Source: a virus. Taken from it: 64,000 bases of DNA. The notes under the pieces were generated by a model. The model was not told the origin of the DNA, made no database searches, and worked only from the letters and a program-made list of their open reading frames with translations. This document shows positions 1 to 36,440 of this stretch, piece by piece; within the stretch, counting starts at the first letter, position 1; each line of letters begins with the position of its first letter. The stretch spans positions 64,001-128,000 of IMG/VR virus record IMGVR_UViG_3300014911_000001. One strand, 5' to 3'. Both the position numbers and the translations under genes were made by a program.

Positions 1-121
1 GGCTGATCGAGTTTCTGATGGCATTGTTGCTTGTCGAACGGAGCATGATGAAGAGTCTATTAGGACGCCTTTGAACACTGATACCACAATATGTCTTATC
101 GGTAATGCGGAAGGTAAACAC
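1..121 (-). CDS. hypothetical protein, truncated at window edge
   Basis: GTG start at 121 with AAGGAGGTG SD; frame open to position 1. Confidence 0.55.
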   Translation of the reverse strand, partial: MFTFRITDKTYCGISVQRRPNRLFIMLRSTSNNAIRNSIS

Positions 122-125
122 GGTA

Positions 126-326
126 TCACCTCCTTTTTGTTTGGTTTTTTACATCACCAAATTGACCTTTCAGATATAGTGGCAATGTTATCAGTCCAGC
201 AATGAAGCCGCCGCATTGAGCAGCCGTCACATTACCAGTTAGTGCTGCAATAAGGAACGATACAGGGAACGCGGCCATGAAGCCGACGGCTGCTCCCTTT
301 AATGATGCCTTTAATGTGTTTCTCAT
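126..326 (-). CDS. small membrane protein
   Basis: Two hydrophobic segments; ATG at 326 follows the upstream stop. Confidence 0.6.
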   Translation of the reverse strand: MRNTLKASLKGAAVGFMAAFPVSFLIAALTGNVTAAQCGGFIAGLITLPLYLKGQFGDVKNQTKRR

Positions 327-333
327 CTCTTTC

Positions 334-603
334 CTATTCCTCCTTTCCACTGTTGATGAAAGAGCGCACCTTCTCAACCAGCTTCTCCTTCACCTCCTCG
401 GCGCGCTCTGTAAGTTCCTTCCCCATCTTCCTCAGTTTCAGAAATCTGAAGAATCCAATTATTCCAACTGCTGCGAGGATGCTTCCCACTATTCCTCCTA
501 ATAACAAGGCGAGAATCGCGGTTACCCAGCATGCGAAATCGGGTTCGTCGCTGATTATGTATGGTGCGAAGTATGATGCGGCTGCTAGTATTATTCTGCT
601 CAT
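334..603 (-). CDS. small membrane protein
   Basis: GGAGG SD; hydrophobic N half, charged coiled C-terminus. Confidence 0.65.
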   Translation of the reverse strand: MSRIILAAASYFAPYIISDEPDFACWVTAILALLLGGIVGSILAAVGIIGFFRFLKLRKMGKELTERAEEVKEKLVEKVRSFINSGKEE

Positions 604-707
604 TCTTTACCTCCCTCTGTCGAAAACATTTTTGATAATATAACTCCTAATATAAACCCTATTATAAATGGTATGTAGTCAATTACTCCAAACATTGGTT
701 CAAACAT
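600..707 (-). CDS. 35-aa single-TM peptide (MFEPMFGVIDYIPFIIGFILGVILSK...)
   Basis: Not in the ORF track; AAGGAGG SD and ATGA overlap with the next gene. Confidence 0.55.
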   Translation of the reverse strand: MFEPMFGVIDYIPFIIGFILGVILSKMFSTEGGKE

Positions 708-850
708 TTTTTGACCTCCTTTCTCCATTTTCTTTCCTTCAGCATAAGTTTTACTGACCTTACCATGATGTATATGCCAGCAACAATTGCAGTAAGGCCA
801 GCAACTACCAGTGATGACCTTATGAATATTTCACTTAATGTTATAAACAT
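683..850 (-). CDS. small membrane protein
   Basis: Start re-called to MFITLSE after GGAGGAG SD; one TM helix and a basic tail. Confidence 0.6.
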   Translation of the reverse strand: MFITLSEIFIRSSLVVAGLTAIVAGIYIMVRSVKLMLKERKWRKEVKKCLNQCLE

Positions 851-975
851 TTCTCCTCCTTTGTTGACCCTCCTCCCCTCCTTGATATGGCGGGGCTTAT
901 GGTGGGACAAGGGGAGAGGCCTAATTGAGGGAAACACTTGGATCAAGGTGGGAGAGGGGAGGAGAGCCCTTTGAT

Positions 976-1383
976 TTAATCTTCGTATTGTGTGTACCAC
1001 TTGTTCTCTCTGGCGTTATACCATATGTAAATCTGTAAATCGCCGAAGTCTATATGTATGTATGGCATCCCGTCCGACCAGTGCCACCTGAAGGTCATCC
1101 AACCGATTGGTTCTGTTAGGATCTCCAATTTCGGTTCGTCCTTCTTTGGATTGAATGCCCATGCATATAGATCGAGTCTCTTCTTGTATGCGTACGGTGC
1201 ATCCGGGTGTCTGCATACTATGTAGACTGGAACAAGCTCCGCCTCGGGGCCTATGGGAGAGGATACAATGTTGCCATCTTCATCTATCGCGACGGGGAAT
1301 TCTACATGCGCCTTTGCTGTGTATCCCACAGGATACACAATGTGCGCATGATATTTGTTATTCATTCTAACTGATTTCCACAT
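976..1383 (-). CDS. hypothetical protein
   Basis: AAGGAGG SD, 135-aa ORF in the operon. Confidence 0.7.
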   Translation of the reverse strand: MWKSVRMNNKYHAHIVYPVGYTAKAHVEFPVAIDEDGNIVSSPIGPEAELVPVYIVCRHPDAPYAYKKRLDLYAWAFNPKKDEPKLEILTEPIGWMTFRWHWSDGMPYIHIDFGDLQIYIWYNARENKWYTQYED

Positions 1384-1401
1384 AATAACCTCCTTGTTAA
1401 T

Positions 1402-1749
1402 TTAGAATTTTATTATGATTACTTTCTTGCCTTTCTCTCTCATAACTCGTATCATATGCCGCGTCCCGGGGCTCTTTCCGTCCCAGAACGCGACAAGCAT
1501 GTCGGCTATCCGTGCCATTTTTTCATTCCTGCGATATCCTGCAGATTTCCCAAAGCGCTCCCAGTCCGCCGGATACACCTCCAACCTGAAGCCGCGCTCC
1601 CTCGCATACTTCTCGCCTAACCTGTCGGCTCCGCGAGCACCTCCTGATACTATGGTTATACCCGGGATGTTTCCAAGGATCTTGTCCAGCTCCTTCTTAA
1701 GCAGATTGTAATCGCTAAATGTCCTAGAGCCTGCGATTATTACCTTCAA
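1402..1749 (-). CDS. YspA/SLOG-family (DUF2493-like) protein
   Basis: VIIAGSRTF, VSGGARGAD, AGYRRN, FWDGKSPGT motifs. Confidence 0.9.
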   Translation of the reverse strand: MKVIIAGSRTFSDYNLLKKELDKILGNIPGITIVSGGARGADRLGEKYARERGFRLEVYPADWERFGKSAGYRRNEKMARIADMLVAFWDGKSPGTRHMIRVMREKGKKVIIIKF

Positions 1750-1762
1750 AATCCTGACCTCC

Positions 1763-2005
1763 TTATCTATTATAGTAGATTTTTATCTTTGCACTCCGTC
1801 CATATCTCCACCTCAATCTCCGCTTTAGCTCGTTTATATCCGCAGCAAAAATCTCATGGAGGCCGTCAGTTCTGACAAACCTCCATGATTTTATATTCCC
1901 CACGTAGGTTGGCTTTCCATTAGGGGCATATGTATGTAGTTTCTCCTTTGTCCTTACTGTTATAACATCAATGTCCTTCAGTAACGGGTAAAATTTCAAC
2001 GACAT
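1763..2005 (-). CDS. hypothetical protein
   Basis: AAGGAGGTG SD. Confidence 0.65.
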   Translation of the reverse strand: MSLKFYPLLKDIDVITVRTKEKLHTYAPNGKPTYVGNIKSWRFVRTDGLHEIFAADINELKRRLRWRYGRSAKIKIYYNR

Positions 2006-2030
2006 AAAACACCTCCTTTTTTAATGTGAA

Positions 2031-2081
2031 GCCCGCCATTAAATCGAAGCGCGCAACCCGGCGGGCTTAGGTCGCGCGCTT
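2031..2081 (-). ncRNA. H-type pseudoknot upstream of RBS
   Basis: S1 AAGCGCGCGACC/GGUUGCGCGCUU, loop UAAGCCCGCCG, S2 GCCCGCC/GGCGGGC. Confidence 0.75.
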
Positions 2082-2088
2082 ACTTTTT

Positions 2089-2760
2089 TTATTCCACTTT
2101 ATTGACCCAGTCGGCTTTGGCATACGGCTTGCCGTTTATATACCACCTCTTCTCGGACGTTATGAGCACGGTTTCATAGCGCTCAAGTAGGTAATCGTTA
2201 CGCTCCCTTACCACGACAGCTTTAGGCTCAGGGATGATGGCATCGGTACCATGTGGAGGTGTGGGAGGGAAAATTGAAACGAGCTGACGTGGAAGGATGA
2301 CAAGAGAAAGGTGTTTGCCTTTCTGTTTGATGCGACTCCTGATGGTCTTCTCGAGACCCTTCTCGACGATTACGTAGCCATACGAATCCGCAGCCTCCTG
2401 GGCGAGTGTGTTCGCCATTTTATTCCCTGTTCTGGCTGTGTGTTTTACAATAACCTCCTTATGCTGGTTATCAGCGTAGTACCTAGCCAGCTCATATAAT
2501 TCCATAAGCTCAGGCTTCTTAATATCATATTCTTGGTTAAACTGCTTCACCACTAACTGTGAGTCGCTGTGTATTGTGGTATCACCCTGGATGTACTGGC
2601 TAATGTATGTCGCAAGAACTAGTGCTGCCCATTCAGCCTCGTTGTTTGTTGCCTCCCCAATGGGTATTGATAGTGATATACCAACCTCCGGAATATATAT
2701 CCCAATCCCAGCGGGACCGGGATTGCCTTTTGATGAGCCATCAATGTAAATGTTAGTCAT
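2089..2760 (-). CDS. rnhA: ribonuclease HI-like protein with C-terminal extension
   Basis: [40 protein letters not shown] motifs. Confidence 0.9.
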
Positions 2761-2774
2761 AATACCTCCTTTAT

Positions 2775-3197
2775 TTATGGTTTAACTTTTCGTAAGCCGA
2801 GGCAACCTATCGGTCGTATGCTTCCACTGCTGGTCTTTTCATATACAGGATGAGCAATCGTGTATAACTTGTCTACGTTAGGTAGGTTGAGAGCAACTGC
2901 TGCAGAAGCATATTGATTACTAACAATTATTATATCAGCATCATCAGGGATGGGATCAATATCCTGTATCCTCTGTGTTATAACTGGGATCATAACCTCA
3001 CCGTTCACTGGACATTCGTAAAGGATGCTCGGAAGGAATTCGGTTTCATGGTGGACATTCAGAAGGATTCCGGAGGGTGGAATTATGGTAACTAGCTTGG
3101 TTTTTTCAGGCTCTATGAAGTATTTCCTGTGCTCACTTATGTAAACGGCGTCCTCAAAAATACATATCTCGTGAGGAGTGCAGTTTAAGATTTTCAT
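2775..3197 (-). CDS. conserved phage hypothetical protein (NxTPH type)
   Basis: ILNCTPHEI start and IIVS..IGCLGL end; SD present. Confidence 0.7.
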
Positions 3198-3219
3198 TAC
3201 ATACCTCCTTTTATTAGGC

Positions 3220-3279
3220 GGGCCTCATTACACCACCATGCAGAGCAGCAGGGCGAGGCCCTTAACCCTGAAGCTCTGC
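3220..3279 (-). ncRNA. H-type pseudoknot upstream of RBS
   Basis: S1 GCAGAGC..CAGGGU/GCCCUG..GCUCUGC, loop UAAGGGCCUC, S2 GGGCCUC/GAGGCCC. Confidence 0.7.
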
Positions 3280-3294
3280 GAAGAAAGAGAGCTA

Positions 3295-3627
3295 TTAGGA
3301 CAAGCGTTCTGCTTCCTGTCTAATCCGAACGGCATCCCTTACTACCTCTAACAGCGAAGGCGGTATAACCCTATTGTTCGAGGTTTTCCCAGTGCGCAAA
3401 TCAACTGCGACAGCACAATCATGCTCGTAAAAGTATACTATATCCCCATCCGGGAAGAATGTTCCATTAGCAGTAGCAACATTATAAATCAGATCGTTGG
3501 TGTATTCGCCGGGATCGCGATATGGTGTATAATGATCCTGAGCGTCCGGTGTTTCACAACCGGTAGTGCTTCTCACACATACATCACACCTGCCACTTCT
3601 ACACAGACGGCACTTATCAAATAACAT
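3295..3627 (-). CDS. hypothetical protein with N-terminal Cys cluster
   Basis: CxxC-x4-CxxC; SD present. Confidence 0.65.
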   Translation of the reverse strand: MLFDKCRLCRSGRCDVCVRSTTGCETPDAQDHYTPYRDPGEYTNDLIYNVATANGTFFPDGDIVYFYEHDCAVAVDLRTGKTSNNRVIPPSLLEVVRDAVRIRQEAERLS

Positions 3628-3654
3628 GATAACCTCCTTATTTTAATGTTTTAT

Positions 3655-3706
3655 GCCCGCCATTAACCAAGCCAGCAAGGACCGGCGGGCTTAGCCCTCA
3701 CTGACT
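3655..3706 (-). ncRNA. H-type pseudoknot upstream of RBS
   Basis: S1 AGUCAGUGAGGGC/GUCCUUGCUGGCU with G-U pairs that fix the strand, loop UAAGCCCGCCG, S2 GCCCGCC/GGCGGGC. Confidence 0.75.
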
Positions 3707-3726
3707 ATTAATTTCCAACTAATTGA

Positions 3727-4095
3727 CTACACAAGTGACGGGCCGAGGGCATCCTCTATTTTGGGACGCCCATACTCAACCTTCCACCCATTTTTAGGCG
3801 GAAGGTTGCGGACCCACCAGTCATACCACTGGCGGTCCATCACCTTTATAAGTTTGGATCGCTTGAAAAACACAGCGATCCACTTCCTTCTTCCCCCAGA
3901 ACGAGGGGAGAAAAACCATATAATCTCATTGGGTCGCACCTTGCCTGTTTTAACAAGATGCGACCACTGCGACCCAGTATTCACATTCTGGGCCGCTAAA
4001 ATAAACTCGTAATGGTTGCGCCACCTTTCGATGGCGCTCTCCCCGGATAACAACTTGGGGAGGTTGATTCTCAAGAAGTTAGTTAATGATAACAT
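3727..4095 (-). CDS. hypothetical basic, Trp-rich protein
   Basis: Start re-called to MLSLTN after GAGGAGGTG SD. Confidence 0.7.
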   Translation of the reverse strand: MLSLTNFLRINLPKLLSGESAIERWRNHYEFILAAQNVNTGSQWSHLVKTGKVRPNEIIWFFSPRSGGRRKWIAVFFKRSKLIKVMDRQWYDWWVRNLPPKNGWKVEYGRPKIEDALGPSLV

Positions 4096-4119
4096 AATAC
4101 ACCTCCTCTTTTGGAGGTT

Positions 4120-4177
4120 GCCTGCCACTTTTACCCACAGATAAGGCGAGGCCGGCAGGCTTAACCCCGCCTTATCT
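4120..4177 (-). ncRNA. H-type pseudoknot upstream of RBS
   Basis: S1 AGAUAAGGCGGGGU/GCCUCGCCUUAUCU, loop UAAGCCUGCCG, S2 GCCUGCC/GGCAGGC. Confidence 0.75.
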
Positions 4178-4285
4178 TACTACTCCAGCTCATTGACTCC
4201 ATCACGAGCCAACAAGCCGGCCAAACCCTCCGTCACCCTCGCGGCACCGCTCCTCGCAGGCCGCACACAGGGGAGGAGGGCTTGG

Positions 4286-4353
4286 GGAGGCCTCTTAGAC
4301 CCTCTGTCGAGGGAGCTCCAGCGCCACGCCAAGGCGGGCCTCCAGTGCTGGAG
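4286..4353 (-). ncRNA. HDV-like ribozyme fold, copy D
   Basis: P1 CUCCAGC/GCUGGAG, P2 GGAGGCC/GGCCUCC, P3 GCC/GGC, L3 UUGGCGU, P4 CCCUC/GAGGG, J4/2 UCUAAG. Confidence 0.8.
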
Positions 4354-4403
4354 TAGCCCCCGGCACGGGGGCTTCATTCTTTTTTCTCTCCACCTCCTTT
4401 CTA

Positions 4404-4440
4404 GCGGGATGAGCTAGCCCGGCCACCTAGCCCATCCCGC
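4404..4440 (-). ncRNA. 14-bp hairpin 3' of the RNAP gene; loop complementary to a 5'-UTR bulge
   Basis: GCGGGAUGGGCUAG/CUAGCUCAUCCCGC with loop GUGGCCGGG. Confidence 0.7.
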
Positions 4441-4457
4441 GGTTTAAGGTTTAACCT

Positions 4458-6857
4458 TTAATCGAGCTTCCAGAAGTTGAGCCAAAATTCGCGATCGGCA
4501 TTAGCAAGAGGATGAAGACCAGCAGGAGTTGTAATCCTAAGAAGCCGCGCGATTTCCCAGTTTCGCTTCCGACCAGTATGAAGTTCCACAAGAAATCTCA
4601 CATGAGATTCAAGTTCAGATTCGGTACCAGCAACAATTGCAAGGAAGTCGTTCTCAGCAACGGTAAGAGATTTCCAAGTGGTAAGAATTGCCTGAGGTTC
4701 AAACGCAGCAAGAAGTTTACGGAATCGCCGGTTGAGTCTCCGGAAGTTCCTAGTAAGAAGTATACGTAGCTCAGCAATCCTGCTGTTGAGGAAGCGCCTA
4801 CGCCGATCCAGTTCCCGTCTCCTATTTTTGAGGGTAGCCAGAGCATCGGATAGGGTATTAAGCCTAGGTAGCAGCCACTTTTCCATTTTCTGCCTCAGAA
4901 CTTCGTTTCTGATCCCAGATACTAGGAACCTGACTTTAGTTTCAGGTTTCGCATTAGCGAAGAGTCTCCGGCTCCGATTAACTACCGTATCAACCGCCGT
5001 CACTTTCTCCGCAAGAGCATTCACTTCATTTTCTATCTTCCGTATCCGAGAGAGCATCCGTCCAAACATGCGCCTCCTTATGCGATCCCACTTGAGGAAC
5101 AATGCCTTAACTTCTGGATCAATGGTGCCATCAGGAATAAGATCCTTAAGAGACCTAACTTCTGGCTCAGCAAACTTAACTTCAGGAATAAATTCAGCAA
5201 GAGGACCTGTCGGAGTTATGGCTGCTGGATCAGCTTTCGCGGTTCGGTTAGTGATCATTTGAGTAATAGTATCAAGCCTGGCAGTCGTACTCGCGAGTAG
5301 ATGCAGTCCCGCTTCTACCTCATGACGAAGCTCCGGTTCTTTACCATTAGCAAGATTCACCGCAGCTTGGAATAGCGCTCCAGCTTTCGCAATAAGATCC
5401 ACATTAATCTCAGTATCAGAAAGAAGCATCCTAGTGAAGCCAGCATCTGCCCGTGCGATCATCTCCTTCCCTAGCTCAATATTTTCCACTTCAGTACTAG
5501 GATCCATTCTCCACTTCCCGAAAGAGATTTCTTTTATCTTGCTTCGTATGCTATCGAAGAATTCCTTAGCAACAAGAGGCTCCTTGAAGACCTTGGATGC
5601 CGCGGCGAGAGCCACTTTGTCGCCATCGGCATCCCATCCGCTAGGCATATCTGCAGGGTGTACCAGAATCGCATGCGCACGATGGTCAACAATAATAGGA
5701 AGGATAAGAGTATCACCAGGCAAGATGGGCGACTTCTGTATGAGTAGGAGTTCTCCATCTTTCAGACCAAGCATACGTGCAATCACAGGAGGAATAACAG
5801 CAGTGCCGGGATGTGCATTCTGAAATCCCAGATAGAAGCCCGGGCCTAGTCTCAACTTCCGAAGTGCGATCTTTAAGTGGTCCAGAAGCACTCTCCGCAG
5901 GAAGCCTGCCTCCTTTATGAGGCCGAATTTCCGCAGAATATCAGCAGTCAGAGTCAGCACTGCACTAGGTTCATTGATCGGATCAGCGTTTTTAACAAGG
6001 ATATCAGCCGCTACCTCAGGATCAGAAAAACCATTAATAGCTTCAGCAATCTGCTCCTGAATCCGTTCAACAAACTCAGGCGCTGGATTAACATTCCATC
6101 CGAGTTTCCTTGGCAGAAGGAACCAGCGCGGCAGAGCTTGGCTGAGACTGATGCCACCCGCGAATACGGCACCAACCTCATGCAGCATGATGGTTCGCCC
6201 GAGTTCGAGTACGAAGCGCCGCCTCTTGATGAGTTTTGCGGTGTCAGCATCAGCGACGATATCAGTCCCTGTCTCTATCTCAGTAAGAACTTTATCAGCA
6301 AGAACCTCATCTCCCAGATACAACATCAGCCTCTGGAACCCGACTCTGCCGGGAAGAACTGGTACCGCTATCCCTTTCAGTCCAATAGCTGTAATCTTAA
6401 AACCACGTTTAATAAGAGCACGAGTTACCGCAGGGATATCAGCTTCTGTAGGAGCATGAGCACGCGCAACCAGCTCTGTAAACCTCTCGGACACGAAGAA
6501 AATTCCGTCTACACCCATTTTAGCATCGAGCTTGAGGCCGCGAACATCCACATTAGCCACTCGCTCAGGTTTAAAGTGCCAGCCCTTATTTGGGATCTCC
6601 GGAGTTGTCATCATCTGAATTCGCTTACCAGGAAGAGTTCTCAGATCAAATCCGTGATCGCCGAGGATATCTGCAATCACCTTATTAACCTTATCAATAG
6701 CAGAAGCAGGAACTACTCTAAAGACCCGACAATCAGGAACCATGGTTGGTTTCATTGGAAGATCAGAGTTCAGATCAGGATCAAATGCGAAGAAGACACT
6801 AGCACCAGCTTCAGCGAATAGAATAGCAAGAGGAGACTTCGGTATTCTTTCCATCAT
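4458..6857 (-). CDS. single-chain double-psi-beta-barrel RNA polymerase (YonO/cRdRP-like), ~799 aa
   Basis: Ordered motifs GVDGIFFVS (DG), GLKG (KG), IQKSP ([RK]xP) and catalytic GWDADGDK (DxDGD); start re-called to 6857 after AAAGGAGGTG. Confidence 0.75.
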   Translation of the reverse strand: MMERIPKSPLAILFAEAGASVFFAFDPDLNSDLPMKPTMVPDCRVFRVVPASAIDKVNKVIADILGDHGFDLRTLPGKRIQMMTTPEIPNKGWHFKPERVANVDVRGLKLDAKMGVDGIFFVSERFTELVARAHAPTEADIPAVTRALIKRGFKITAIGLKGIAVPVLPGRVGFQRLMLYLGDEVLADKVLTEIETGTDIVADADTAKLIKRRRFVLELGRTIMLHEVGAVFAGGISLSQALPRWFLLPRKLGWNVNPAPEFVERIQEQIAEAINGFSDPEVAADILVKNADPINEPSAVLTLTADILRKFGLIKEAGFLRRVLLDHLKIALRKLRLGPGFYLGFQNAHPGTAVIPPVIARMLGLKDGELLLIQKSPILPGDTLILPIIVDHRAHAILVHPADMPSGWDADGDKVALAAASKVFKEPLVAKEFFDSIRSKIKEISFGKWRMDPSTEVENIELGKEMIARADAGFTRMLLSDTEINVDLIAKAGALFQAAVNLANGKEPELRHEVEAGLHLLASTTARLDTITQMITNRTAKADPAAITPTGPLAEFIPEVKFAEPEVRSLKDLIPDGTIDPEVKALFLKWDRIRRRMFGRMLSRIRKIENEVNALAEKVTAVDTVVNRSRRLFANAKPETKVRFLVSGIRNEVLRQKMEKWLLPRLNTLSDALATLKNRRRELDRRRRFLNSRIAELRILLTRNFRRLNRRFRKLLAAFEPQAILTTWKSLTVAENDFLAIVAGTESELESHVRFLVELHTGRKRNWEIARLLRITTPAGLHPLANADREFWLNFWKLD

Positions 6858-6871
6858 ATCACCTCCTTTCC

Positions 6872-6998
6872 GCCGCGGATTTCGTTGCCCTCGGTGCGGC
6901 ACTCCGAGGGTCGCCGGGCTTCGAGCGTCATTGGTGCCAAGGCTGGCCATAGAATGAAGCCCGGAAATTCCATGGCCATGGCCGGGCGCCTCAGCACC
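6872..6998 (-). ncRNA. two tandem pseudoknots in the RNAP 5' leader
   Basis: PK-a: GGUGCUGAGGC/GCCUUGGCACC plus UGGCCAUGGAAU/AUUCUAUGGCCA, loop CCGGGCUUC pairs GAAGCCCGG. PK-b: CCCUCGG/CCGAGGG, loop GCCGC pairs GCGGC just before the SD. Confidence 0.7.
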
Positions 6999-7042
6999 TC
7001 TGCCCTCTTTTTATCCATTCTTTCTTACCTCCTTTATAAATA

Positions 7043-7121
7043 GAGGGACTCTTAGGCCCTTAGGCTATTGACCTAAGGGAGCCCCGGCGCCACGACAAGG
7101 CGGTCCCTCAAAAAGCCGGGG
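7043..7121 (-). ncRNA. HDV-like ribozyme fold, copy C
   Basis: P1 CCCCGGC/GCCGGGG, P2 GAGGGAC/GUCCCUC, P3 GCC/GGC, L3 UUGUCGU, P4 CCCUUAGG/CCUAAGGG, J4/2 CCUAAG; begins directly after the upstream UAA stop. Confidence 0.8.
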
Positions 7122-7589
7122 TTAACTCAATTTGACATCATTATTATCCTTCTCTTTCTTTATCCACTCTATCAATTCATCCACTAGGCGCTCCACATTA
7201 TAATCATCAATAATAAGAAGCGCCCTCCTGACCTTGTAGCCGAGCACCTCATGCGCTTTTAGCACATGCCTCGGCATCCAAGGCCAGGTCTCATTGTATC
7301 CCCCATTATATTTGATTTGGAGAAGGATTACCTCCTTCTTATGGGGGATACCAATGCTGACGTCGATTTTAAATACGACGTCAGCTTTACTCCCGATAGG
7401 ATAGTCTATTAATTTCCATCCCGCCGGAAGCTTGGAGGATAGTTCTTCAATGAATCTATCCTCCGCTTCGAAGCCAGCTCTATGCGCCTCATGTGCGATA
7501 GAGCTAACCTCGAAATCCGGGCGGATTATTTCATGACATTCCGCCCAGAATTTTCGCGCTATAGTGCGGGCATGCGTTTCCATATCCAT
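7122..7589 (-). CDS. hypothetical protein, possible PD-(D/E)xK nuclease fold
   Basis: G.EAE...D...KID...LLQIK pattern; SD present. Confidence 0.5.
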   Translation of the reverse strand: MDMETHARTIARKFWAECHEIIRPDFEVSSIAHEAHRAGFEAEDRFIEELSSKLPAGWKLIDYPIGSKADVVFKIDVSIGIPHKKEVILLQIKYNGGYNETWPWMPRHVLKAHEVLGYKVRRALLIIDDYNVERLVDELIEWIKKEKDNNDVKLS

Positions 7590-7601
7590 GGTTGCCTCCT
7601 T

Positions 7602-8177
7602 TTACTCGACAAGAACATGATATATTCCATTTATTTTCTTTACTTTCCTTACTCTAAATAAACATTTATCCACAATTACTTCCTCTTCTTCACAATAAGG
7701 TTGCAAATTCAACAATCTCCCCTCTGCTTTAGTCATAAATACAACAGGAACTACATCAGGAAAATTATATCCTTCCCACAAATCCGGGTCATCAAACTCG
7801 TTATCATAACTTCTCTTTTTTCAAATTGCGAAGCGCTTTGCAACTGCATAACGCCTCGTCCAACTCATATTGATAGATATTTTCCTCCCTATCTGAGGGA
7901 TAGCATATACAACATCCCCTCTGAATAATAGTGATCTTACCTTAGGACACCCTAATAACGATATTTTTAAGGCGAGCTTAGAAATATAGATACCTCTCCC
8001 CTTCCACATTCTCAGCAAAGCGATCCTATTGTCTTTTGAAAATATCCCGCACAAAATTCTCAGCTTTTTCAATAACAGCTTGTATTTCATTTGGAGATGG
8101 TTCAGCTTTATTTCCCAACTCCTGTAAAAAACATTCCTTTTAGGATCTTTAATGAATAACGAAATGACCCACCACAT
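7602..8177 (-). pseudogene. ~191-codon ORF interrupted by one in-frame TGA at 7821-7823
   Basis: The frame continues KKRSYDNEFDDPDLWEG...HVLVE to TAA at 7602, next to the following SD. Confidence 0.6.
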
Positions 8178-8193
8178 TGTTACACCTCCTTTT

Positions 8194-8299
8194 GCCCGTA
8201 TTAGTTTACCAAGGGCACCATCTGACCTGCGGGCATTGATCAGACGGTGCCTATGTTACAAAACGGGCACCGTATAGTCATGGTAACAATACGGTGCCC
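8194..8299 (-). ncRNA. two tandem H-type pseudoknots upstream of RBS
   Basis: GGGCACCGUAU/AUACGGUGCCC with loop UGUUAC pairing GUAACA; GGCACCGUCUGA/UCAGAUGGUGCC with loop GCCCG pairing CGGGC. Confidence 0.7.
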
Positions 8300-8318
8300 T
8301 CACAACATCCCCTTTTAT

Positions 8319-8396
8319 TAGGGTGCTCTTAGACCCTTAGGGATTGGACCTAAGGGAGCCCCTCCACCACGTCAAGGTGGCACCCTATCGGAGGGG
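8319..8396 (-). ncRNA. HDV-like ribozyme fold, copy B
   Basis: P1 CCCCUCC/GGAGGGG, P2 UAGGGUGC/GCACCCUA, P3 ACC/GGU, L3 UUGACGU, P4 CCCUUAGG/CCUAAGGG, J4/2 UCUAAG. Confidence 0.8.
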
Positions 8397-8449
8397 TAGC
8401 AAGGCCATCATGTGAGGCCTTGCTTTGGCTTGGGCGGCACCTCATCATC

Positions 8450-8746
8450 TTACACATAAAAGCGATCCAACCCCTCAATATGAGGGGTTGTTTTGCTCTC
8501 CCTATCAACGATGTACAAGTTAGTCCCTATCCGAAATATGTCATGATACTTACACGCCTCCGGCTCCACAATAAGCTCTGCATCCTCAGGTATATATCCA
8601 ACCCATCCTTTGTACAAGCACCTCCGCACTAAGACATGAGTAAAACAGCTGGAATCAACAAGTGTAAGTCTATCATCATCATCATCGTAAATTCCGATAT
8701 ACCAGTAGTTATCTCTCACCAAGACTTTAATGACTTTTACCGCCAC
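8450..8746 (-). CDS. hypothetical protein (98 aa)
   Basis: GTG start at 8746 after AAAGGAGG; the upstream extension in the ORF track is structured RNA. Confidence 0.7.
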   Translation of the reverse strand: MAVKVIKVLVRDNYWYIGIYDDDDDRLTLVDSSCFTHVLVRRCLYKGWVGYIPEDAELIVEPEACKYHDIFRIGTNLYIVDRESKTTPHIEGLDRFYV

Positions 8747-8760
8747 GATAAACCTCCTTT

Positions 8761-8820
8761 CGCCGCACCTCAGTTCAGCCCCCGACACGCATGCGGTGCG
8801 GCATTTACATACGTGTCGGG
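8761..8820 (-). ncRNA. H-type pseudoknot abutting the SD
   Basis: S1 CCCGACACGUAUG/CAUGCGUGUCGGG, loop UAAAUGCCGCACCG, S2 GCCGCACC/GGUGCGGC. Confidence 0.8.
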
Positions 8821-8836
8821 ATGCCGCCCAAGCCAT

Positions 8837-8907
8837 CGGACGCTCTTAGACCTAGCCACAAGGCTAGGAGCCCCTCCACCACGTCAAGGTGGCGTCCGTC
8901 GGAGGGG
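8837..8907 (-). ncRNA. HDV-like ribozyme fold, copy A
   Basis: P1 CCCCUCC/GGAGGGG, P2 CGGACGC/GCGUCCG, P3 ACC/GGU, L3 UUGACGU, P4 CCUAGCC/GGCUAGG, J4/2 UCUAAG. Confidence 0.8.
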
Positions 8908-8956
8908 TAGCAAGGCCATGCGAGACCTTGCTTTGTCTGCGGGGGCACCATGAATA

Positions 8957-9190
8957 TTATAACTCTGATGGACGGGGCCTCTGTAACGATTCAAAATATA
9001 GCGATAAAGCCTCCATGAATGTCACAGGAATCCCTTTTTTCTTATACTGGAATGGAGGCGCCGGAACATTACCCAGCACCTCCTTTGTTATTTTTATTGC
9101 AATGTAACCTCTAAGTTCCTTAAACCGGTATGTCTTGATTTCACCATTATTATAAATGGTGATAGCATTCACGTTTTTTGACATCCTCAT
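8957..9190 (-). CDS. hypothetical protein, first gene of the leftward operon
   Basis: AAGGAGG SD, 77 aa. Confidence 0.7.
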   Translation of the reverse strand: MRMSKNVNAITIYNNGEIKTYRFKELRGYIAIKITKEVLGNVPAPPFQYKKKGIPVTFMEALSLYFESLQRPRPSEL

Positions 9191-9206
9191 TTTATCCTCC
9201 TTTTTC

Positions 9207-9266
9207 GCCGCGCCTTGGTTCTACGCCCAGCATGTACGCGGCGCGGCATTTACGCACATGCTGGGC
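9207..9266 (-). ncRNA. H-type pseudoknot abutting the SD
   Basis: S1 GCCCAGCAUGUGCG/CGUACAUGCUGGGC, loop UAAAUGCCGCGCCG, S2 GCCGCGCC/GGCGCGGC; covaries with 8761-8820. Confidence 0.8.
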
Positions 9267-9544
9267 TGGCGCCCCCGCAATCCCCTATTAGCCGAGGAAG
9301 CAAATCAAAAATCAAGGGGGCAGGGGGGTCGAAATACAATCCGACCCCCTCAAAATCCACAATAGAGACCTCCTGAATTTTTTGCCGATTTCTTGACCCT
9401 TATGGACCTCCCTGTAGACTCATTCCGACGGGGTACCTTGCGGCATAGGGAGGTGTTCTATGAGGTTGTTGGTTGGACTGGATATGGGCTTGTGATGGTT
9501 ATTGTGTTAGGGTCTGGGGGGTGTGGGACCTCTTGTGGGCTTGT

Positions 9545-9720
9545 TTGTGACTATGTGGGTTGGTGTGGGCTACCCCTTTTCGACCCTATGGGTCTGCTCT
9601 CTATAAGGCTTCCTGCTTCAGCGAGGGATAGCTAGGCTTATGTGAAGCCCCCGCCAGAGCCCTCTCCACAGGCATAAGTTCGGGCCGCCCCGGCCCTACC
9701 ACCCGTGAGGTGGGTGAGCC
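9545..9720 (-). ncRNA. TnpB omega-RNA (reRNA) scaffold plus putative guide
   Basis: GGGGCGGCCCGAAC..GCCUGUGGAGA..UCGCUGAAGCAGGAAGC..GGGGUAGCCCAC matches the IS200/IS605 right-end RNA pattern; the guide would start at 9564 (ACCAACCCACAUAGUCACAA). Confidence 0.8.
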
Positions 9721-9759
9721 CATTTTTTGTGATGTATGTTGTGTGTATGTTAGCATTTT

Positions 9760-10203
9760 TTATATACCTGTGCTACCGAATCCATTTTGGTTGCGTGTTG
9801 TGGGTGTTACATCATTGACAGGTTCGAATTCGCATGGATGTATTCGTGATATTATTATTTGGGCTATTCTATCGCCGTCTTTTATGGTAATGTTTTTGTT
9901 ACCGAGGTTGATGAGGATGACCATTATTTCGCCTCTGTAGTCGCTATCTATGGTTCCTGGTGAGTTAAGGACCGTTAGTCCGTGTCTGAGTGCTAGTCCA
10001 CTTCTTGGGCGGATTTGTGCTTCGTAGTTGTTGGGTAGTTCTAGTATGAAGCCGGCCGGTATGGCTTTATATTCACCCGGGTGTAGTGTTATGGGTTTTT
10101 GGAGTCTTGCGAAGATGTCGTAGCCTGCTGAACCCGGGGTCATTTTTCTTGGCATTGTACCGCCGGGCAGAAGTTTTAGTTTGATTTTATTAGTGTTACT
10201 CAT
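9760..10203 (-). CDS. dut: dUTPase (trimeric)
   Basis: SAGYDI, RPRSGLA, GTIDSDYRGE, GDRIAQ, RNQNGFGSTG; exact start uncertain. Confidence 0.95.
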   Translation of the reverse strand: MSNTNKIKLKLLPGGTMPRKMTPGSAGYDIFARLQKPITLHPGEYKAIPAGFILELPNNYEAQIRPRSGLALRHGLTVLNSPGTIDSDYRGEIMVILINLGNKNITIKDGDRIAQIIISRIHPCEFEPVNDVTPTTRNQNGFGSTGI

Positions 10204-10432
10204 GGCTACTGGATTTAATTTGTTCGTTCTTACTGTTACTAATAGGTTTGATACCCAGTACCCATTGGGCACCGCATTCACATATTAGTGTCATCCTTTT
10301 ATACCCTTGCGTATCGGATGCTGTGAATACGATGGACACAGATTGACCGTCTTTTAGGTTCCATCCTTCTATTATGTTTGTTTTACCGCATACGGGGCAT
10401 GTGAAGAAGCCCGCCCATTTTTGTTCCTTCAT
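10196..10432 (-). CDS. small zinc-ribbon protein
   Basis: CPVCG...CECG; ATGA overlap with the upstream gene. Confidence 0.65.
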   Translation of the reverse strand: MKEQKWAGFFTCPVCGKTNIIEGWNLKDGQSVSIVFTASDTQGYKRMTLICECGAQWVLGIKPISNSKNEQIKSSSHE

Positions 10433-10824
10433 TTTATCTCCTTATTGTTTTTATCGTTGAAATATGTTTTTCTAAATTCCTCTAGGATAGGTTCATCACC
10501 TGTACCATAGAGGACGGCGTGCATCCATTCAGTTACTTGATCTGCTGTATGGTGTGGAAATACATCCTTCATGCATCCGAAGTATTTTTGCCAGTTGGTT
10601 GGTTTAGGTTTTTTATGTTCTTTTATAGTCCATTTTTTGGTAGCTGTGGCGGATCCGTAGGTTGTGAGGATGAGGCCTATAATTATTATTATTATGGTGT
10701 ATGTAGTGGGATTATTGGTGTAGTGGTGGAGGAGGAAGCCGGCCGCAGTGGTAAGGAGGCCCCAGAATCGTTTGCTTTTCCAGAAGGGTTTGGTGTTATT
10801 ATTGTTATTATCGTGTGTGCTCAT
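10429..10824 (-). CDS. membrane protein, holin-like N-terminus
   Basis: KPFWKSKRFW followed by two TM segments. Confidence 0.55.
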   Translation of the reverse strand: MSTHDNNNNNTKPFWKSKRFWGLLTTAAGFLLHHYTNNPTTYTIIIIIIGLILTTYGSATATKKWTIKEHKKPKPTNWQKYFGCMKDVFPHHTADQVTEWMHAVLYGTGDEPILEEFRKTYFNDKNNKEIK

Positions 10825-12052
10825 TTTGGATCTCCTTTATGTTATGAAGCCCGCGCTTCAGTATATTAATACTTGCATTATAATCTCTATCGAGGGTTGC
10901 ACCACAGAACGGACATTTATGTATACGATCGTGGAGTGATTTGGGTACCTTATGTCCACATGAGGAGCATGTCTGCGTAGTATATGCTGGGTTAACCTTG
11001 ATGACCTGTGAGCCGTGAAGCCGCGCCTTGTAGGATGTTAGATTGATAAGTGTGTTCCATCCTGCATCGTAGATGTATTTAGAGAGGTGAAGCCGGCGGC
11101 GCTTGCTTACAAGATCACGTATTTTTATATCCTCGAATATAATAATATCATAGTTAGTAGCAAGCTGGTGTGAGATATGATGGAGGAAGCCGCGCCGCAT
11201 GTTAGCTAATCGTTCATGGAGTCTGGCTAGTTTACGCCTCTGTTTCATATAATTAGCACTCCCTCGCTGCTTGCGCGAGAGCTGTTTTTGTACACGCTTT
11301 ATACGTTTTTCGAGTTTGGTGATGAAGCGCGGGTTAGATACAATATTACCATCACTTGATACGATGAGATTCGTAAGCCCGAGATCTATACCGATGATGC
11401 GCTGCTTATTATTAGTATCGATAACGATAGTAGCGTCATTATTATTGGGTACTTCAACTGTTACATATACATACCATCTACCGCTGGGATGTCTTTTTAT
11501 AGTAACATTTTTGGCTTTAGTCCAGTCGATGGGTCGGTGAAGGCGGATTTTTAAGCCGCCGAGTTTGGGTAAATGAATATATGCGAACTTATCATTCAGT
11601 TTCTCAAATTTAATGACAGGATACCCATCCGGATAGTTTTTATGAGTCATCCAAACTTGTGGATATGTAAGTGATAGATATTGATCAGGTTTTTTGGGTT
11701 TAGGCGGACTTATATGTCCTTCTTTATTCCTGATGGCTACAAAGAAACGCTTATATGCCCAGTCAATCTTATCAATTATAGCCTTTAAGACACCTGAATA
11801 AACGAGCCTTAAGGCAGGTTCCTCTCTTTTAAATGCGGTTAGGTTACGTTGCCTCTCAAATTTTGTAGGGGTTCTATGTTCTTCATCCCATATACGTCTG
11901 TATTCATTTATTTCGTAATTATAGAACCAGCAGAGGATGGACAGCCAGTTTTCTAGTTTGTATTCTTGTAGTGTTGTTGGATAGGCTCTGAATTTGTAGG
12001 TGAGGTAGGAAGCCGCCGCCTTATCAGTATTTTTTGATCCCTGTTTATTCAT
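10808..12052 (-). CDS. tnpB: IS200/IS605-family TnpB RNA-guided endonuclease (no TnpA nearby)
   Basis: YKFRAYPT, RuvC-I GIDLG, RuvC-II FEDI, TTQTCSSCG/CPFCG zinc finger, RuvC-III DRDYNASINIL. Confidence 0.95.
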   Translation of the reverse strand: MNKQGSKNTDKAAASYLTYKFRAYPTTLQEYKLENWLSILCWFYNYEINEYRRIWDEEHRTPTKFERQRNLTAFKREEPALRLVYSGVLKAIIDKIDWAYKRFFVAIRNKEGHISPPKPKKPDQYLSLTYPQVWMTHKNYPDGYPVIKFEKLNDKFAYIHLPKLGGLKIRLHRPIDWTKAKNVTIKRHPSGRWYVYVTVEVPNNNDATIVIDTNNKQRIIGIDLGLTNLIVSSDGNIVSNPRFITKLEKRIKRVQKQLSRKQRGSANYMKQRRKLARLHERLANMRRGFLHHISHQLATNYDIIIFEDIKIRDLVSKRRRLHLSKYIYDAGWNTLINLTSYKARLHGSQVIKVNPAYTTQTCSSCGHKVPKSLHDRIHKCPFCGATLDRDYNASINILKRGLHNIKEIQNEHTR

Positions 12053-12100
12053 TTCATTATGTTACTATATGATGGAACATTTTATATTGGATATGTTACA

Positions 12101-12391
12101 CTATGGTATAACATCTCTCTCCTCTGTCTCTATGGACATATTGATCATATCTATTATGTCCTCAGGTAGGGAGTGAAGAATCTCTCTGAACTCGTCCTCA
12201 CCATCGAATACATAAACAGATAAGCGCCCGCATTTTTCATAGTCACCACACGGATGAATGCGTCTTATATCCCATGCGACCTTATCTTTTGATGTTATCA
12301 CCTTTATGTTGAACTCAGCATTGACTATCGTTGACTCTCCCTTCCATATGTTAACGCAAGGATTAACGCAATAGTTAACGCATAGGTACAT
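12101..12391 (-). CDS. hypothetical protein (start uncertain)
   Basis: ORF track; the N-terminus overlaps a DNA repeat. Confidence 0.45.
   Translation of the reverse strand: MYLCVNYCVNPCVNIWKGESTIVNAEFNIKVITSKDKVAWDIRRIHPCGDYEKCGRLSVYVFDGEDEFREILHSLPEDIIDMINMSIETEERDVIP
12350..12382. repeat. 3x TTAACGCA direct repeat, 12-bp period
   Basis: Copies at 12351, 12363 and 12375. Confidence 0.8.
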
Positions 12392-12844
12392 TCATGCATC
12401 TCCAAACCGTTGCATCAACCGTTCCATGCTTTTTCTAAAGAGCTTCACCGATGCGTACAATAGATTGGCAGCAATAGCAAGATAAAGCACACCTATAGGA
12501 GGCTTTGAGAGGAACGGTACGACACTTGATACAATAAATGCAATACTCATGTTAGCAGCAAACTGATGATAACGAAAATAATGATTCAGTATTCCTTCGT
12601 AGACACTAACATCATCACTTGATAGATTTTCAAATGTTATGTGAGTTTTTGATGAAATACCACATATGAAATTATAACGAATCGTATCAATAATAAGCCC
12701 CAGCATGAAGGATGATACAGCAAATGCACATGCCCATAAGCCCCACGGTATAGTTGGACCAAAAAGTCCTATCTTATATATATGGAGAAGAAGGAAGAAG
12801 CCCGGCAGAAAATGAGCAATAAAAACACCATATAAGAAACTCAT
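12392..12844 (-). CDS. multi-pass membrane protein
   Basis: Four hydrophobic segments; GGAGG SD. Confidence 0.7.
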   Translation of the reverse strand: MSFLYGVFIAHFLPGFFLLLHIYKIGLFGPTIPWGLWACAFAVSSFMLGLIIDTIRYNFICGISSKTHITFENLSSDDVSVYEGILNHYFRYHQFAANMSIAFIVSSVVPFLSKPPIGVLYLAIAANLLYASVKLFRKSMERLMQRFGDA

Positions 12845-12870
12845 TAAGGTCCCTCCTTATTTTGATAACC

Positions 12871-13413
12871 TTAGAATAAACTGAATCCTACATAAAGATC
12901 CCAACCACGATCAAATGATTCATTAGAATTAACGAACTGGCTATTATCGTAGGAAGCCCCGACATAGAAGGTGGGTGATAATATAATAATGCCCTGACAG
13001 AATGATTCAGAAAGAAGAAACGGATTCATAAGCGCCACAATGATTGATAGATCTATACCTACAGACCCAGAAAGACGCATGTTGGTGTAGTCGAAGCCGC
13101 CGCCCCTTCCGTAGCCAAGCCGGCCGCCTAAACGTATGAAGGATAACTCCTTAATAAGTGGTATATCAACATCCATTGATGCAAAAAGACCATTACCAGA
13201 TCCCTTGGGGGTTCTTATGTGTTCATACCCGAGGCCGGCGTAAAGAAGTGGATATGATTCCTCATCATGGTTGAGTAGATATTTGAAGCCCCCGCTCCAG
13301 TCCTTGTTGTAAACATTTTTGTCAATTTCAATATTGATCGGGAGGATATGAGGCAGGGCATTTGATATAGCAAGAGCGGAGAGAATTAATAAAACAGTAA
13401 ATATTTTACGCAT
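12871..13413 (-). CDS. secreted outer-membrane beta-barrel-like protein
   Basis: Signal peptide, alternating beta strands, C-terminal WDLYVGFSLF (BAM-type signal). Confidence 0.65.
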   Translation of the reverse strand: MRKIFTVLLILSALAISNALPHILPINIEIDKNVYNKDWSGGFKYLLNHDEESYPLLYAGLGYEHIRTPKGSGNGLFASMDVDIPLIKELSFIRLGGRLGYGRGGGFDYTNMRLSGSVGIDLSIIVALMNPFLLSESFCQGIIILSPTFYVGASYDNSQFVNSNESFDRGWDLYVGFSLF

Positions 13414-13444
13414 GTATCACCTCCTTTAATAGTATGTTACAGTA

Positions 13445-13472
13445 TTATATGTATGGTCATATTATAGTCAAG
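13445..13472 (-). promoter_or_regulatory. sigma70-type promoter
   Basis: TTGACT-N16-TATAAT upstream of 13413. Confidence 0.65.
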
Positions 13473-13565
13473 CAGAAATTTTTGGGATAAATCGTTCTGT
13501 ATATAGAACAATTTTTAGGTAATTTTGTTCTGCAGACATTACAAAAAACCCAATTTTTGATGTGA

Positions 13566-13745
13566 TTATTCAGTAAGAATATCTTCTCTTTTTTCTAATA
13601 CCCATTCTAATGCTTCGATTTTACCAAGGTGATTATAGTATGCTGGCAGAAAATCAAATCCTCTATCTTCAGTCATTTCCCATAGCTCACTTGCCTGCTC
13701 ATTCAACTCTTCTAAAGCTGTCTTAATTTCCTTTTTACTTCTCAT
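13566..13745 (-). CDS. small hypothetical protein
   Basis: GGAGG SD before MRSKKEIK; IEALEWVL motif. Confidence 0.7.
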   Translation of the reverse strand: MRSKKEIKTALEELNEQASELWEMTEDRGFDFLPAYYNHLGKIEALEWVLEKREDILTE

Positions 13746-13774
13746 GTTAACCTCCCTTTTAATAATATGCAACT

Positions 13775-13802
13775 ATTATATTGATAGATACTGCTGTGTC
13801 AA
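13775..13802 (-). promoter_or_regulatory. sigma70-type promoter
   Basis: TTGACA-N16-TATAAT. Confidence 0.7.
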
Positions 13803-36439: not shown

Positions 36440-36440
36440 T

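Follow-up and report, generated by a model that had tools for sequence, protein, structure and literature searches.

The stretch of DNA considered here, called the window throughout, comprises 64,000 nucleotides and corresponds to bases 64,001-128,000 of a 175,796-bp virus record (IMG/VR IMGVR_UViG_3300014911_000001) rated complete, i.e., the genome of a 176-kb tailed phage. This analysis deals with window positions 4354-7121, where a minus-strand gene for a 799-aa protein lies between two elements folding like the self-cleaving ribozymes of hepatitis delta virus (HDV). The reading that the evidence favours, by somewhat more than an even chance, combines an operon punctuated by ribozymes, processed mRNAs with closed ends and, encoded by one of these mRNAs, a polymerase of the YonO/QDE-1 type tied to RNase H.

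As proposed, the interval would constitute one cassette of a ribozyme-punctuated minus-strand operon of the early or replication type, in which four intergenic, non-canonical ribozymes would self-cleave and thereby divide one polycistronic transcript into individual mRNAs. At the 5' end of each mRNA there would be a folded ribozyme bearing a 5'-OH and, at the 3' end, a GC hairpin followed by CUA and a 2',3'-cyclic phosphate. Within the short cassettes of the operon, arms of 12-16 bp located just inside these end structures pair the 5' end with the 3' end, as shown by covariation. In the cassette delimited by ribozymes C and D (C->D), a leader open reading frame (ORF) of 54 codons would be translationally coupled to the 799-aa two-barrel polymerase, and a contact between a bulge of the leader and a loop of the 3' untranslated region (UTR) would most likely replace the terminal arms in bridging the ends. 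The purpose of such bridging may be to protect the mRNA from exonucleases and heat and/or to control the translation of the leader ORF and the polymerase.

A series of probable HDV-like ribozymes

A 15-nt core motif, for which chance would predict 0.12 occurrences, is found four times, exclusively on the minus strand, and each copy marks one of the elements A to D (Table 1). All four share the same architecture. A 7-nt strand is joined by a short linker to a second strand of 6-7 nt, after which come a hairpin of 3 bp with a loop of 7 nt, the sequence complementary to the 7-nt strand, the dinucleotide CU, a variable hairpin, a purine-rich joiner with C-U-A-A and, finally, the complement of the second strand. 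This pairing pattern corresponds to the topology P1-P2-P3-P1'-P4-P2' known from HDV-like ribozymes, i.e., a nested double pseudoknot. No further copy of the class occurs in the whole 176-kb genome, and the same elements are found in the same intergenic positions of related phage contigs, themselves obtained via homologues of the polymerase or via a ribozyme pattern search.

Across 16 distinct copies from five loci, P1, P2 and P3 are paired in 256 of 256 cells, a figure to be read with the selection filter in mind, part of this pairing having been demanded by it; two to four pair types are encountered at most positions. The helix test was passed by every syntenic copy found via the core motif alone and failed by about 20 unrelated core matches. 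P4 is a stable hairpin in all copies and has undergone wholesale replacement in some, with at least three versions unrelated in sequence. The joiner J4/2 reads C-U-A-A in 16 copies, C-C-A-A in the second copy of locus L022 and C-G-A-A in L128. Both L3 (UUGNCGU) and J1/4 (CU) are invariant and would permit a P1.1 made of G-C and U.U, an invariance that leaves no variation by which the P1.1 pairing could be judged. L022 and L128 are unrelated phage contigs carrying ribozymes of the same non-canonical class, two in series and 640 nt apart in the former (7577-7645 and 8217-8290) and one in the latter (near 7400-7480); their helices are entirely different, and within the class the putative catalytic C may be followed by U, C or G. 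Two pattern scans of viral contigs returned mostly false positives, with true copies in L028, L022 and L128 only. Scanning the genome and the loci of distant homologues for a generic HDV topology yielded, besides the known copies, only false positives, with nothing in L009, L039 and L040.

In the crystal structure of an HDV-like ribozyme from Ackermannviridae, a U:A and a U:U pair occupy the place of P1.1 (PMC13635239), and the C that opens J4/2 acts as general acid in the HDV-like family (PMC13635239, PMC10879173); as such, L3, J1/4 (CU) and J4/2 (C-N-A-A) of the present elements are consistent with an HDV-like architecture. By comparative sequence evidence, the HDV-like fold of the elements is established, and their self-cleavage is likely. 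With CPEB3, drz, theta and Ackermannviridae ribozymes they have in common the nested double pseudoknot, a 7-bp P1, a 3-bp P3 and C-N-A-A in J4/2, with CPEB3 a 7-nt L3, with the Ackermannviridae ribozyme a putative short P1.1 with a U.U pair and, with known HDV-like ribozymes, the occurrence in Caudoviricetes. They nonetheless depart from canonical HDV-like ribozymes by a C1-G37 pair and by a flipped Watson-Crick pair in the putative P1.1 (G in L3, C in J1/4), and from the minimal theta ribozymes of gut phages by a full-length P4. Unlike known HDV-like ribozymes, they stand in series between protein genes, escape recognition by Rfam and occur in a window without tRNAs. Hundreds of non-tRNA phage HDV-like copies, intergenic and of unknown function, were reported by Kienbeck et al.

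Predicted processed RNAs and terminal clamps

Cuts located 5' of nucleotide 1 of ribozymes C and D are predicted to release an RNA of 2,768 nt (7121->4354) containing the polymerase gene. The cut of ribozyme C would fall 5' of C7121, directly past the stop codon of the upstream ORF 7589->7122. A previous interpretation of this DNA, hereafter the sequence-only reading, had already positioned C and D for this release; its coordinates are exact and are now backed by fold and covariation, cleavage itself being predicted. By the same logic, the neighbouring product A->B would measure 441 nt and contain a single small ORF, and B->C would measure 1.2 kb and contain two ORFs. Because these neighbouring genes are likewise flanked, the ribozymes appear as a feature of the operon rather than of the polymerase gene. 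A GC hairpin precedes most sites and ends 2-3 nt ahead of the cut, which would give each product a folded ribozyme at its start and a hairpin at its end.

The short cassettes obey a fixed layout, i.e., ribozyme, 5' arm, hairpin or pseudoknot, ribosome site, small ORF, 3' arm, GC hairpin, CUA and next ribozyme. Their arms, of 12-16 bp, connect the 5' end to the 3' end and covary from one lineage to another as well as from one cassette to another. In the A->B cassette, the 13-16 nt right after ribozyme A pair with the nucleotides right before the hairpin preceding ribozyme B, and in L005 at least four positions have changed on each side of this clamp with complementarity retained. An extra cassette in L005 and L028 (Bx->B) has an unrelated 12-bp arm pair in the same places, its clamp also covarying, and the cassette upstream of ribozyme A contains a third arm pair. 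These comparisons of sequence support an end-to-end closure of the processed mRNAs as a recurrent design in this operon.

The polymerase cassette (C->D) is devoid of terminal arms. The distance between its ribozyme and its leader is not fixed, since in the 147-kb relative L028 an extra ORF intervenes between ribozyme C and the conserved leader (L028:3688-4404, minus strand). At the other end, the GC hairpin of the element preceding ribozyme D (4373-4355) ends 1 nt ahead of the cut site, and a ribosome-site-like sequence with an AUG, about 20 nt before the cut, resembles the initiation region of the leader ORF. After cleavage by ribozyme D, that AUG would open a stop-less frame of 8 codons. On the plus strand, the hairpin and T-run of 4354-4398 resemble an intrinsic terminator.

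The leader and its long-range complementarity

The stretch between ribozyme C and the start codon of the polymerase, previously regarded as a leader, is not non-coding as judged from its reading frame, and the term requires correction. The stop codon of the leader ORF overlaps the start codon of the polymerase as ATGA, and the frame is open in all relatives (53-56 aa in related loci), with in-frame indels only and a shifted start in one lineage. The segment 6990-6860 is nearly invariant at the nucleotide level, its conservation far exceeding that of the polymerase coding sequence downstream. In an RNAalifold consensus of five lineages, the leader forms a long hairpin with a one-sided 9-nt bulge at 6987-6979, supported by two compensatory pairs at the tip and several G-U changes. 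Further downstream, the loop of a second hairpin (GCCGC) could pair with GCGGC by the ribosome site, as read from the sequence, and this hairpin can thereby form a putative pseudoknot of the type found in the neighbouring cassettes.

Positions 6987-6978, in the leader bulge, are complementary to 4426-4417, in the loop of the 3'-UTR hairpin, over 10 positions with one G.U (9 nt without the closing C), and this helix ranks first among all possible helices between leader and 3' UTR in five of five lineages. Both partners are identical in ten loci, except in L028 where the first loop base is changed from G to A, turning the terminal G.U into A-U. The loop is constant while its own stem, including one compensatory pair change in L006, and its intergenic surroundings vary; a 3-nt insertion in L006 lies within the bulge, beside the complementary 9 nt and not inside them. 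The duplex is worth -18.8 kcal/mol vs opening costs of about 4.0 and 1.1 kcal/mol. With shuffled sequences, -18.8 kcal/mol is reached in 4 of 300 for this loop against the whole RNA body, -21.3 kcal/mol in 21 of 400 (about 5%) for any helix between leader and 3' UTR, a test that is not stringent, and two strong helices at once in none of 400. Taken alone, the complementarity is only marginally unusual compared with chance. As the C->D cassette is without terminal arms and its sister cassettes are clamped, the bulge/loop contact is the obvious candidate for bridging the ends.

The fbi/tac pairing of hok mRNA and the bulge/loop contacts of the tombusvirus type are 5'-3' long-range pairings; by analogy, complementary ends could here close one RNA and control its stability or translation. 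Unlike in these systems, the putative pairing is combined with ribozyme-made ends and recurs in the form of terminal arms in the sister cassettes.

The leader hairpin is also linked through its tip, by a perfect 12-bp match, to the A-run/AUG element ahead of ribozyme D (6962-6951 with 4380-4369). This match was rejected as a conserved feature, since only 9-10 bp of it survive in L005 and L028 and L001 and L006 have lost it, L001 showing a new match of 7 nt located 8 nt upstream. Besides, with 6 of 7 nt matching in each case, the 3' loop is similar to the 3' strand of P1 in ribozyme C and the bulge to the 5' strand of that helix, and the sites 7115-7121, 7076-7082, 6979-6987, 6913-6920 and 4417-4426, none of which varies, could compete.

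The 799-aa protein as a probable divergent two-barrel polymerase

The DG, KG, KxP and DADGD motifs put forward by the sequence-only reading are present in the order it gave, i.e., D117-G118, K161-G162, K375-S-P377 and D409-A-D-G-D413, and are invariant in the six known members of the family. According to Ruprich-Robert and Thuriaux, eight residues are common to all two-barrel polymerases, namely three Asp, one Asp and two basic residues in the other barrel, and a basic-x-Pro pair (R446/P448 of Rpb1) (PMC2919709). Candidates are available for all eight (D409, D411, D413, D117, K154, K161, K375 and P377), every one of them family-invariant, and their order and spacing resemble those of QDE-1. 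The stretch K375-S-P...H-P...D409-A-D-G-D aligns with R-A-P...H-P...D-F-D-G-D of Escherichia coli beta-prime with a difference of one residue in length (35 residues from basic-x-P to the first Asp vs 36 in E. coli, H-P being at the same offset) and with Lys instead of Arg in the basic-x-P motif.

With the alignment of the six sequences, AlphaFold models residues 337-444 as a confident double-psi barrel of the beta-prime type, with a predicted local distance difference test (pLDDT) of about 70-83, and D409, D411 and D413, which form the Mg-binding DxDxD signature and are invariant in six members, sit inside it. In an all-against-all structural search, the top Protein Data Bank (PDB) matches of this barrel are the largest subunits of RNA polymerases, at Z 9-11.7 over 100-110 aligned residues with a root-mean-square deviation of 2.7-3.1, the matched chains including Pol I, II, III and IV, archaeal RpoA', vaccinia virus, African swine fever virus (ASFV), P23-45 gp96 and AR9. 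Generic double-psi barrels (CDC48-N, formylmethanofuran dehydrogenase) also score about 10, over shorter stretches of ~80-95 residues, and no PolD chain is found within the top 50. In a language-model feature search of the Atlas, PF05183, the RNA-dependent RNA polymerase (RdRP) family of QDE-1 and YonO, labels 27 of the 30 nearest clusters. Towards the N-terminus, local motifs resemble those of E. coli beta, with D117, K154 and K161 invariant and a pLDDT of about 30-70; a coiled-coil region extends over about 580-717 on the C-terminal side. The alternative 830-aa frame starting at 6950 is without a ribosome site.

Homologues were sought among 5.8 billion clustered proteins together with an exhaustive scan of 1.8 billion representatives, and consist of three clusters of 78-89% identity, one protein of 1,109 aa (P0005, ~31-39%) and one of 784 aa. 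The exhaustive phmmer search of the representatives found three proteins only and a profile search added none; the family amounts to about six known clusters, all metagenomic. Sequence searches of Pfam, PHROGs and PDB, run both with the protein alone and with the profile of its family, gave nothing meaningful, and tblastn against 50,697 phage records returned no match to the polymerase. Foldseek against viral models yielded nothing at E<=0.001, with weak rows for LEF-9 and for poxvirus and ASFV polymerase subunits, and a shape search of the Atlas reached a template-modelling (TM) score of about 0.2, its hits being barrel-containing molybdopterin enzymes and a single viral cluster with an Rpb1 domain.

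Several results speak against the assignment. Profiles of PF05183 (RdRP) and of the Rpb1/Rpb2 domains gave no match at E<=1 or E<=10, and hhalign detected no similarity between the family profile and single YonO, E. coli beta or beta-prime sequences; such profile tests are weak here, YonO itself missing every Pfam model. The whole AlphaFold model is poor (mean pLDDT 46), and the second barrel, N-terminal and beta-like, was recovered neither there nor in a second run restricted to residues 40-540. This second run was no better (pLDDT 46.6), and its structure search produced helical-bundle noise and weak RNA polymerase rows only. Of the YonO/QDE-1-type assignment made by the sequence-only reading, the modelled beta-prime-type barrel at 337-444, the eight candidate residues and the PF05183 neighbours in feature space stand, and the N-terminal barrel is the part left without a model.

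On balance, the 799-aa protein is very probably a two-barrel nucleotide polymerase, best read as a new and very divergent branch of the single-chain two-barrel polymerases. Like YonO of the Bacillus prophage SPbeta and QDE-1/RDR (PF05183), it is a single chain of about 800 aa with a beta-like D...K...K first and a beta-prime-like basic-x-P...DxDGD-K about 215-250 aa further on and, like YonO, it is phage-encoded and diverges very fast. It differs from YonO by the lack of detectable sequence or profile similarity, by Lys for the universal Arg, by the long coiled coil and by the link with RNase H. The enzymes of the Thermus phage P23-45, i.e., gp96 with its tape-measure fusion and the non-virion one, are likewise phage single-chain two-barrel enzymes, and gp96 has the highest identity among the structural matches to RNA polymerases (Z 9.3, 100 residues, 19%); unlike them, the present protein has no tblastn match, no tape-measure fusion and a different genomic setting.

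The RNase H link

A gene or domain for RNase H accompanies the polymerase. In the 1,109-aa homologue P0005, an RNase H domain is fused at the C-terminus; at the locus of the 784-aa homologue (L039/L040), the RNase H gene is immediately adjacent and directly upstream, 32 nt separating its end from the polymerase gene; and in the family of the window itself, it lies two to four genes downstream. The genes of the distant homologues are themselves ordinary phage genes, packed tightly and devoid of ribozymes and of long or structured UTRs. The RNase H link points to RNA:DNA hybrids and to DNA-templated work, and the enzyme is most likely a DNA-templated RNA polymerase, which could serve either the transcription of the phage or the supply of RNA for replication. 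As a separate observation, RNase H, polymerase and a protein of the SLOG type (YspA/LDcluster4) are neighbours both in L039 (6943-10852) and in the window (RNase H and SLOG genes at 1402-2760).

Alternative readings

Three features weigh against cleavage by the HDV-shaped elements. The first P1 pair is C1-G37 in 16 of 16 copies; in canonical HDV ribozymes, it is a G1.U37 wobble in this place that binds the catalytic metal. Nucleotide -1 of the cut site is almost always A, which is unfavourable in HDV (PMC1874588). Furthermore, Rfam yielded no ribozyme family in the window at the gathering score, in positions 1-14,000 at E<=10 or in six related loci, covariance models being unable to encode the pseudoknot. 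The elements could then be non-cleaving structural modules, e.g., exonuclease blocks or translation enhancers, and no 2,768-nt RNA would be released. We consider this unlikely, as the putative catalytic C and the N-A-A behind it are kept in every copy, including the divergent ones of L022 and L128 (only N varies), the U and G positions of L3 and the possible P1.1 are invariant, and every copy lies exactly between genes, most of them right behind a 3' hairpin, a placement that fits a processing site. As for the bulge/loop complementarity, it may have no function as a pairing, each side being conserved for local reasons, i.e., the bulge as part of a translated ORF or of a constrained structure and the loop as a protein-binding site or part of another element; ribozyme processing and the polymerase assignment would both stand in that case. 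This merits serious attention at distinctly less than an even chance. In its favour, and against a functional contact, no compensatory double change is found in ten loci, where the partners are nearly invariant; the near-invariance of the whole leader makes the conservation of the bulge non-specific; a helix this strong arises in some shuffles, at the frequency given above; the bulge has a probability of being unpaired of 0.0015 in the ensemble of the window's own sequence, its opening costing ~4 kcal/mol; the loss of the nearby 12-bp match indicates that complementarities of this kind can appear at this locus and serve no lasting function; two other conserved sites, 6920-6913 and the 5' strand of P1 in ribozyme C, match the loop as well; and a 9-nt loop is sterically unable to pair over its full length. 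On the other side stand the constancy of the loop amid varying stem and surroundings, the fact that its sole change improves the pairing, the insertion of L006 sparing the complementary 9 nt, the absence of two strong helices together from all 400 shuffles and the bridged ends of the sister cassettes. Function of the bulge/loop pairing is tentatively retained, at slightly under an even chance. The complementarity pointed out by the sequence-only reading is real, with bulge and hairpin loop placed as described, and its retention in ten homologous loci leaves it unrefuted; the bridging of the mRNA ends drawn from it is plausible, the top rank in five lineages, the ten-locus conservation and the clamped neighbours counting for it and the lack of compensatory change against it.

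Turning to the enzyme, it may work mainly in replication, either by making RNA primers or origin R-loops trimmed by RNase H, for which ColE1 and mitochondrial priming offer an analogy, or as a PolD-like DNA polymerase. What keeps a role in priming or R-loop formation as a serious rival to plain transcription, at a rather low probability, is mainly the association with RNase H, as a fusion in P0005, as the gene directly upstream in L039/L040 and as a near neighbour in all close relatives. The position of the gene amid those for dUTPase, ThyX, ribonucleotide reductase (RNR), ligase and YopX, not structural genes, agrees with it, as does the existence of a DNA polymerase family that also has a two-barrel core (PMC7708050). 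It is countered by YonO, the characterised single-chain relative, being a transcriptase (PMC5467207), by structural matches that are RNA polymerases with PolD missing from the best 50, and by the lack of any other recognisable RNA polymerase in the phage; moreover, RNase H is common in phage replication modules and proximity alone is weak evidence. The boldest proposal of the sequence-only reading, a DNA-launched replicon in which the excised RNA would form a circle and serve as template for the polymerase it encodes, is unsupported and hardly credible. It could draw on the ends of the RNA, which may be held together and would carry a 5'-OH and a 2',3'-cyclic phosphate, ends of the kind accepted by RtcB. 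QDE-1, for its part, has both RNA- and DNA-templated activity (PMC9508822). Nevertheless, no ribozyme of the class exists on the plus strand genome-wide, so that an antisense RNA would be without a processing site of its own; no RtcB is encoded by the phage; joining the 3' end to C7121 would rebuild the substrate of ribozyme C, and the circle would re-cleave; the distant homologues have none of these RNA elements; RNase H points to RNA:DNA hybrids; and the ribozymes flank unrelated small genes too, hence are not specific to the polymerase. A milder version, in which mRNAs closed by clamps or by the bulge/loop contact would be turned by a host RtcB-type ligase into circular, exonuclease-proof mRNAs, with loop and bulge as a re-cleavage switch and, at the extreme, the polymerase copying the RNA, is very unlikely; the switch is suggested by the resemblance of loop and bulge to the two strands of P1 in ribozyme C.

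Genome setting and features

The window contains genes typical of tailed phages, namely those for large terminase, portal, capsid protein, tail sheath and RNR, as well as TnpB, and the phage is a large, probably heat-loving one. The first 10 kb of the window have a G+C content of 0.45-0.50 vs ~0.40 in the remainder, with all genes on the minus strand. In the phage genome, searches revealed no RtcB, no polymerase of the T7 type, no Rpb1-domain gene and no second recognisable RNA polymerase; scans for promoters and terminators showed no enrichment.

Table 1. Coordinates of the ribozymes, RNA elements and genes discussed in the text (window positions unless a locus is named; x->y follows the minus strand)
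Feature	Position	Strand	Description
HDV-like ribozyme A	8907->8837	-	Core motif and shared architecture; same operon
HDV-like ribozyme B	8396->8320	-	Core motif and shared architecture; same operon
HDV-like ribozyme C	7121->7043	-	Core motif, P1/P2/P3/P4 parse, covariation; syntenic copies in related phages
HDV-like ribozyme D	4353->4286	-	Core motif, P1/P2/P3/P4 parse, covariation
Fixed-layout short cassettes	8425-8836, 8938-9279; L005:2347-2752 and 2860-3174		
Cassette between ribozymes A and B	8425..8836	-	Arms about 8835-8822 and 8439-8426 pair end to end
Leader ORF	7018->6854	-	54 codons, own AAAGGAGG ribosome site
Long leader hairpin	6923..7007	-	Outer stem 6998-6988/6943-6933, inner stem 6978-6967/6955-6944
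5' partner of the long-range complementarity	6978..6987	-	Bulge 6987-6979 and U6978
Second leader hairpin	6872..6919	-	Just upstream of the polymerase ribosome site; nested alternative in the consensus fold
Polymerase ORF (P0001)	6857->4458	-	799 aa, behind a GGAGGTG ribosome site
3'-UTR hairpin	4440->4404	-	14-bp stem; 9-nt loop 4426-4418 is the 3' partner, 4417 the closing C
Pre-ribozyme-D element	4354..4398	-	Conserved ribosome-site-like sequence, A-run, AUG, then GC hairpin (4373-4355)
dUTPase gene	10281->9760	-	Followed by several small ORFs of unknown function, then the 799-aa ORF
RNase H gene	2760->2089	-	Separated from the 799-aa ORF by three small ORFs; followed by the gene of a YspA-type SLOG protein

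Some further observations concern other parts of the genome. The large terminase gene (36351-38897, plus strand) has a Hint/intein-like insert, with Vint and Hint_2 matches slightly under the Pfam cut-offs. A TnpB gene is located at 10808-12052 on the minus strand and, ~1.1 kb downstream of it, a RAGATH-18 match below threshold (29.3 bits, E 0.044) occupies 9610-9672 (minus strand). Adjoining this match, 51 nt at about 9664-9714 share 86% identity with an unannotated intergenic stretch of the Rhodothermus phage RM378, and lie beside TnpB-associated RNA and outside the polymerase gene. The RAGATH-18-like match and the RM378-like stretch may represent a TnpB guide-RNA scaffold detached from the TnpB gene. 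GC-rich palindromic 12-14-mers of the type GAAGCC-GCGGCTTC occur more than 20 times in the whole genome (G+C 40%) and are presumably hairpin or terminator elements.

Significance

Each component described here is a variant of something known; to our knowledge, their combination is undescribed. If the ribozymes cleave, they would provide a clear case of a series of phage HDV-like ribozymes punctuating a protein-coding operon, as well as a function for many of the isolated phage HDV-like ribozymes of unknown role, and the C1-G37 variant with its flipped P1.1 would put the need for the G.U wobble to the test. The covarying clamps between 5' and 3' ends suggest a deliberate design of mRNAs with closed ends, which may have evolved in response to heat or host RNases and is directly testable and reusable in RNA engineering. 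Finally, the protein adds a very small and very divergent branch to the two-barrel polymerases, and the fusion with RNase H in one relative is a concrete lead on the job of the orphan single-chain polymerases.

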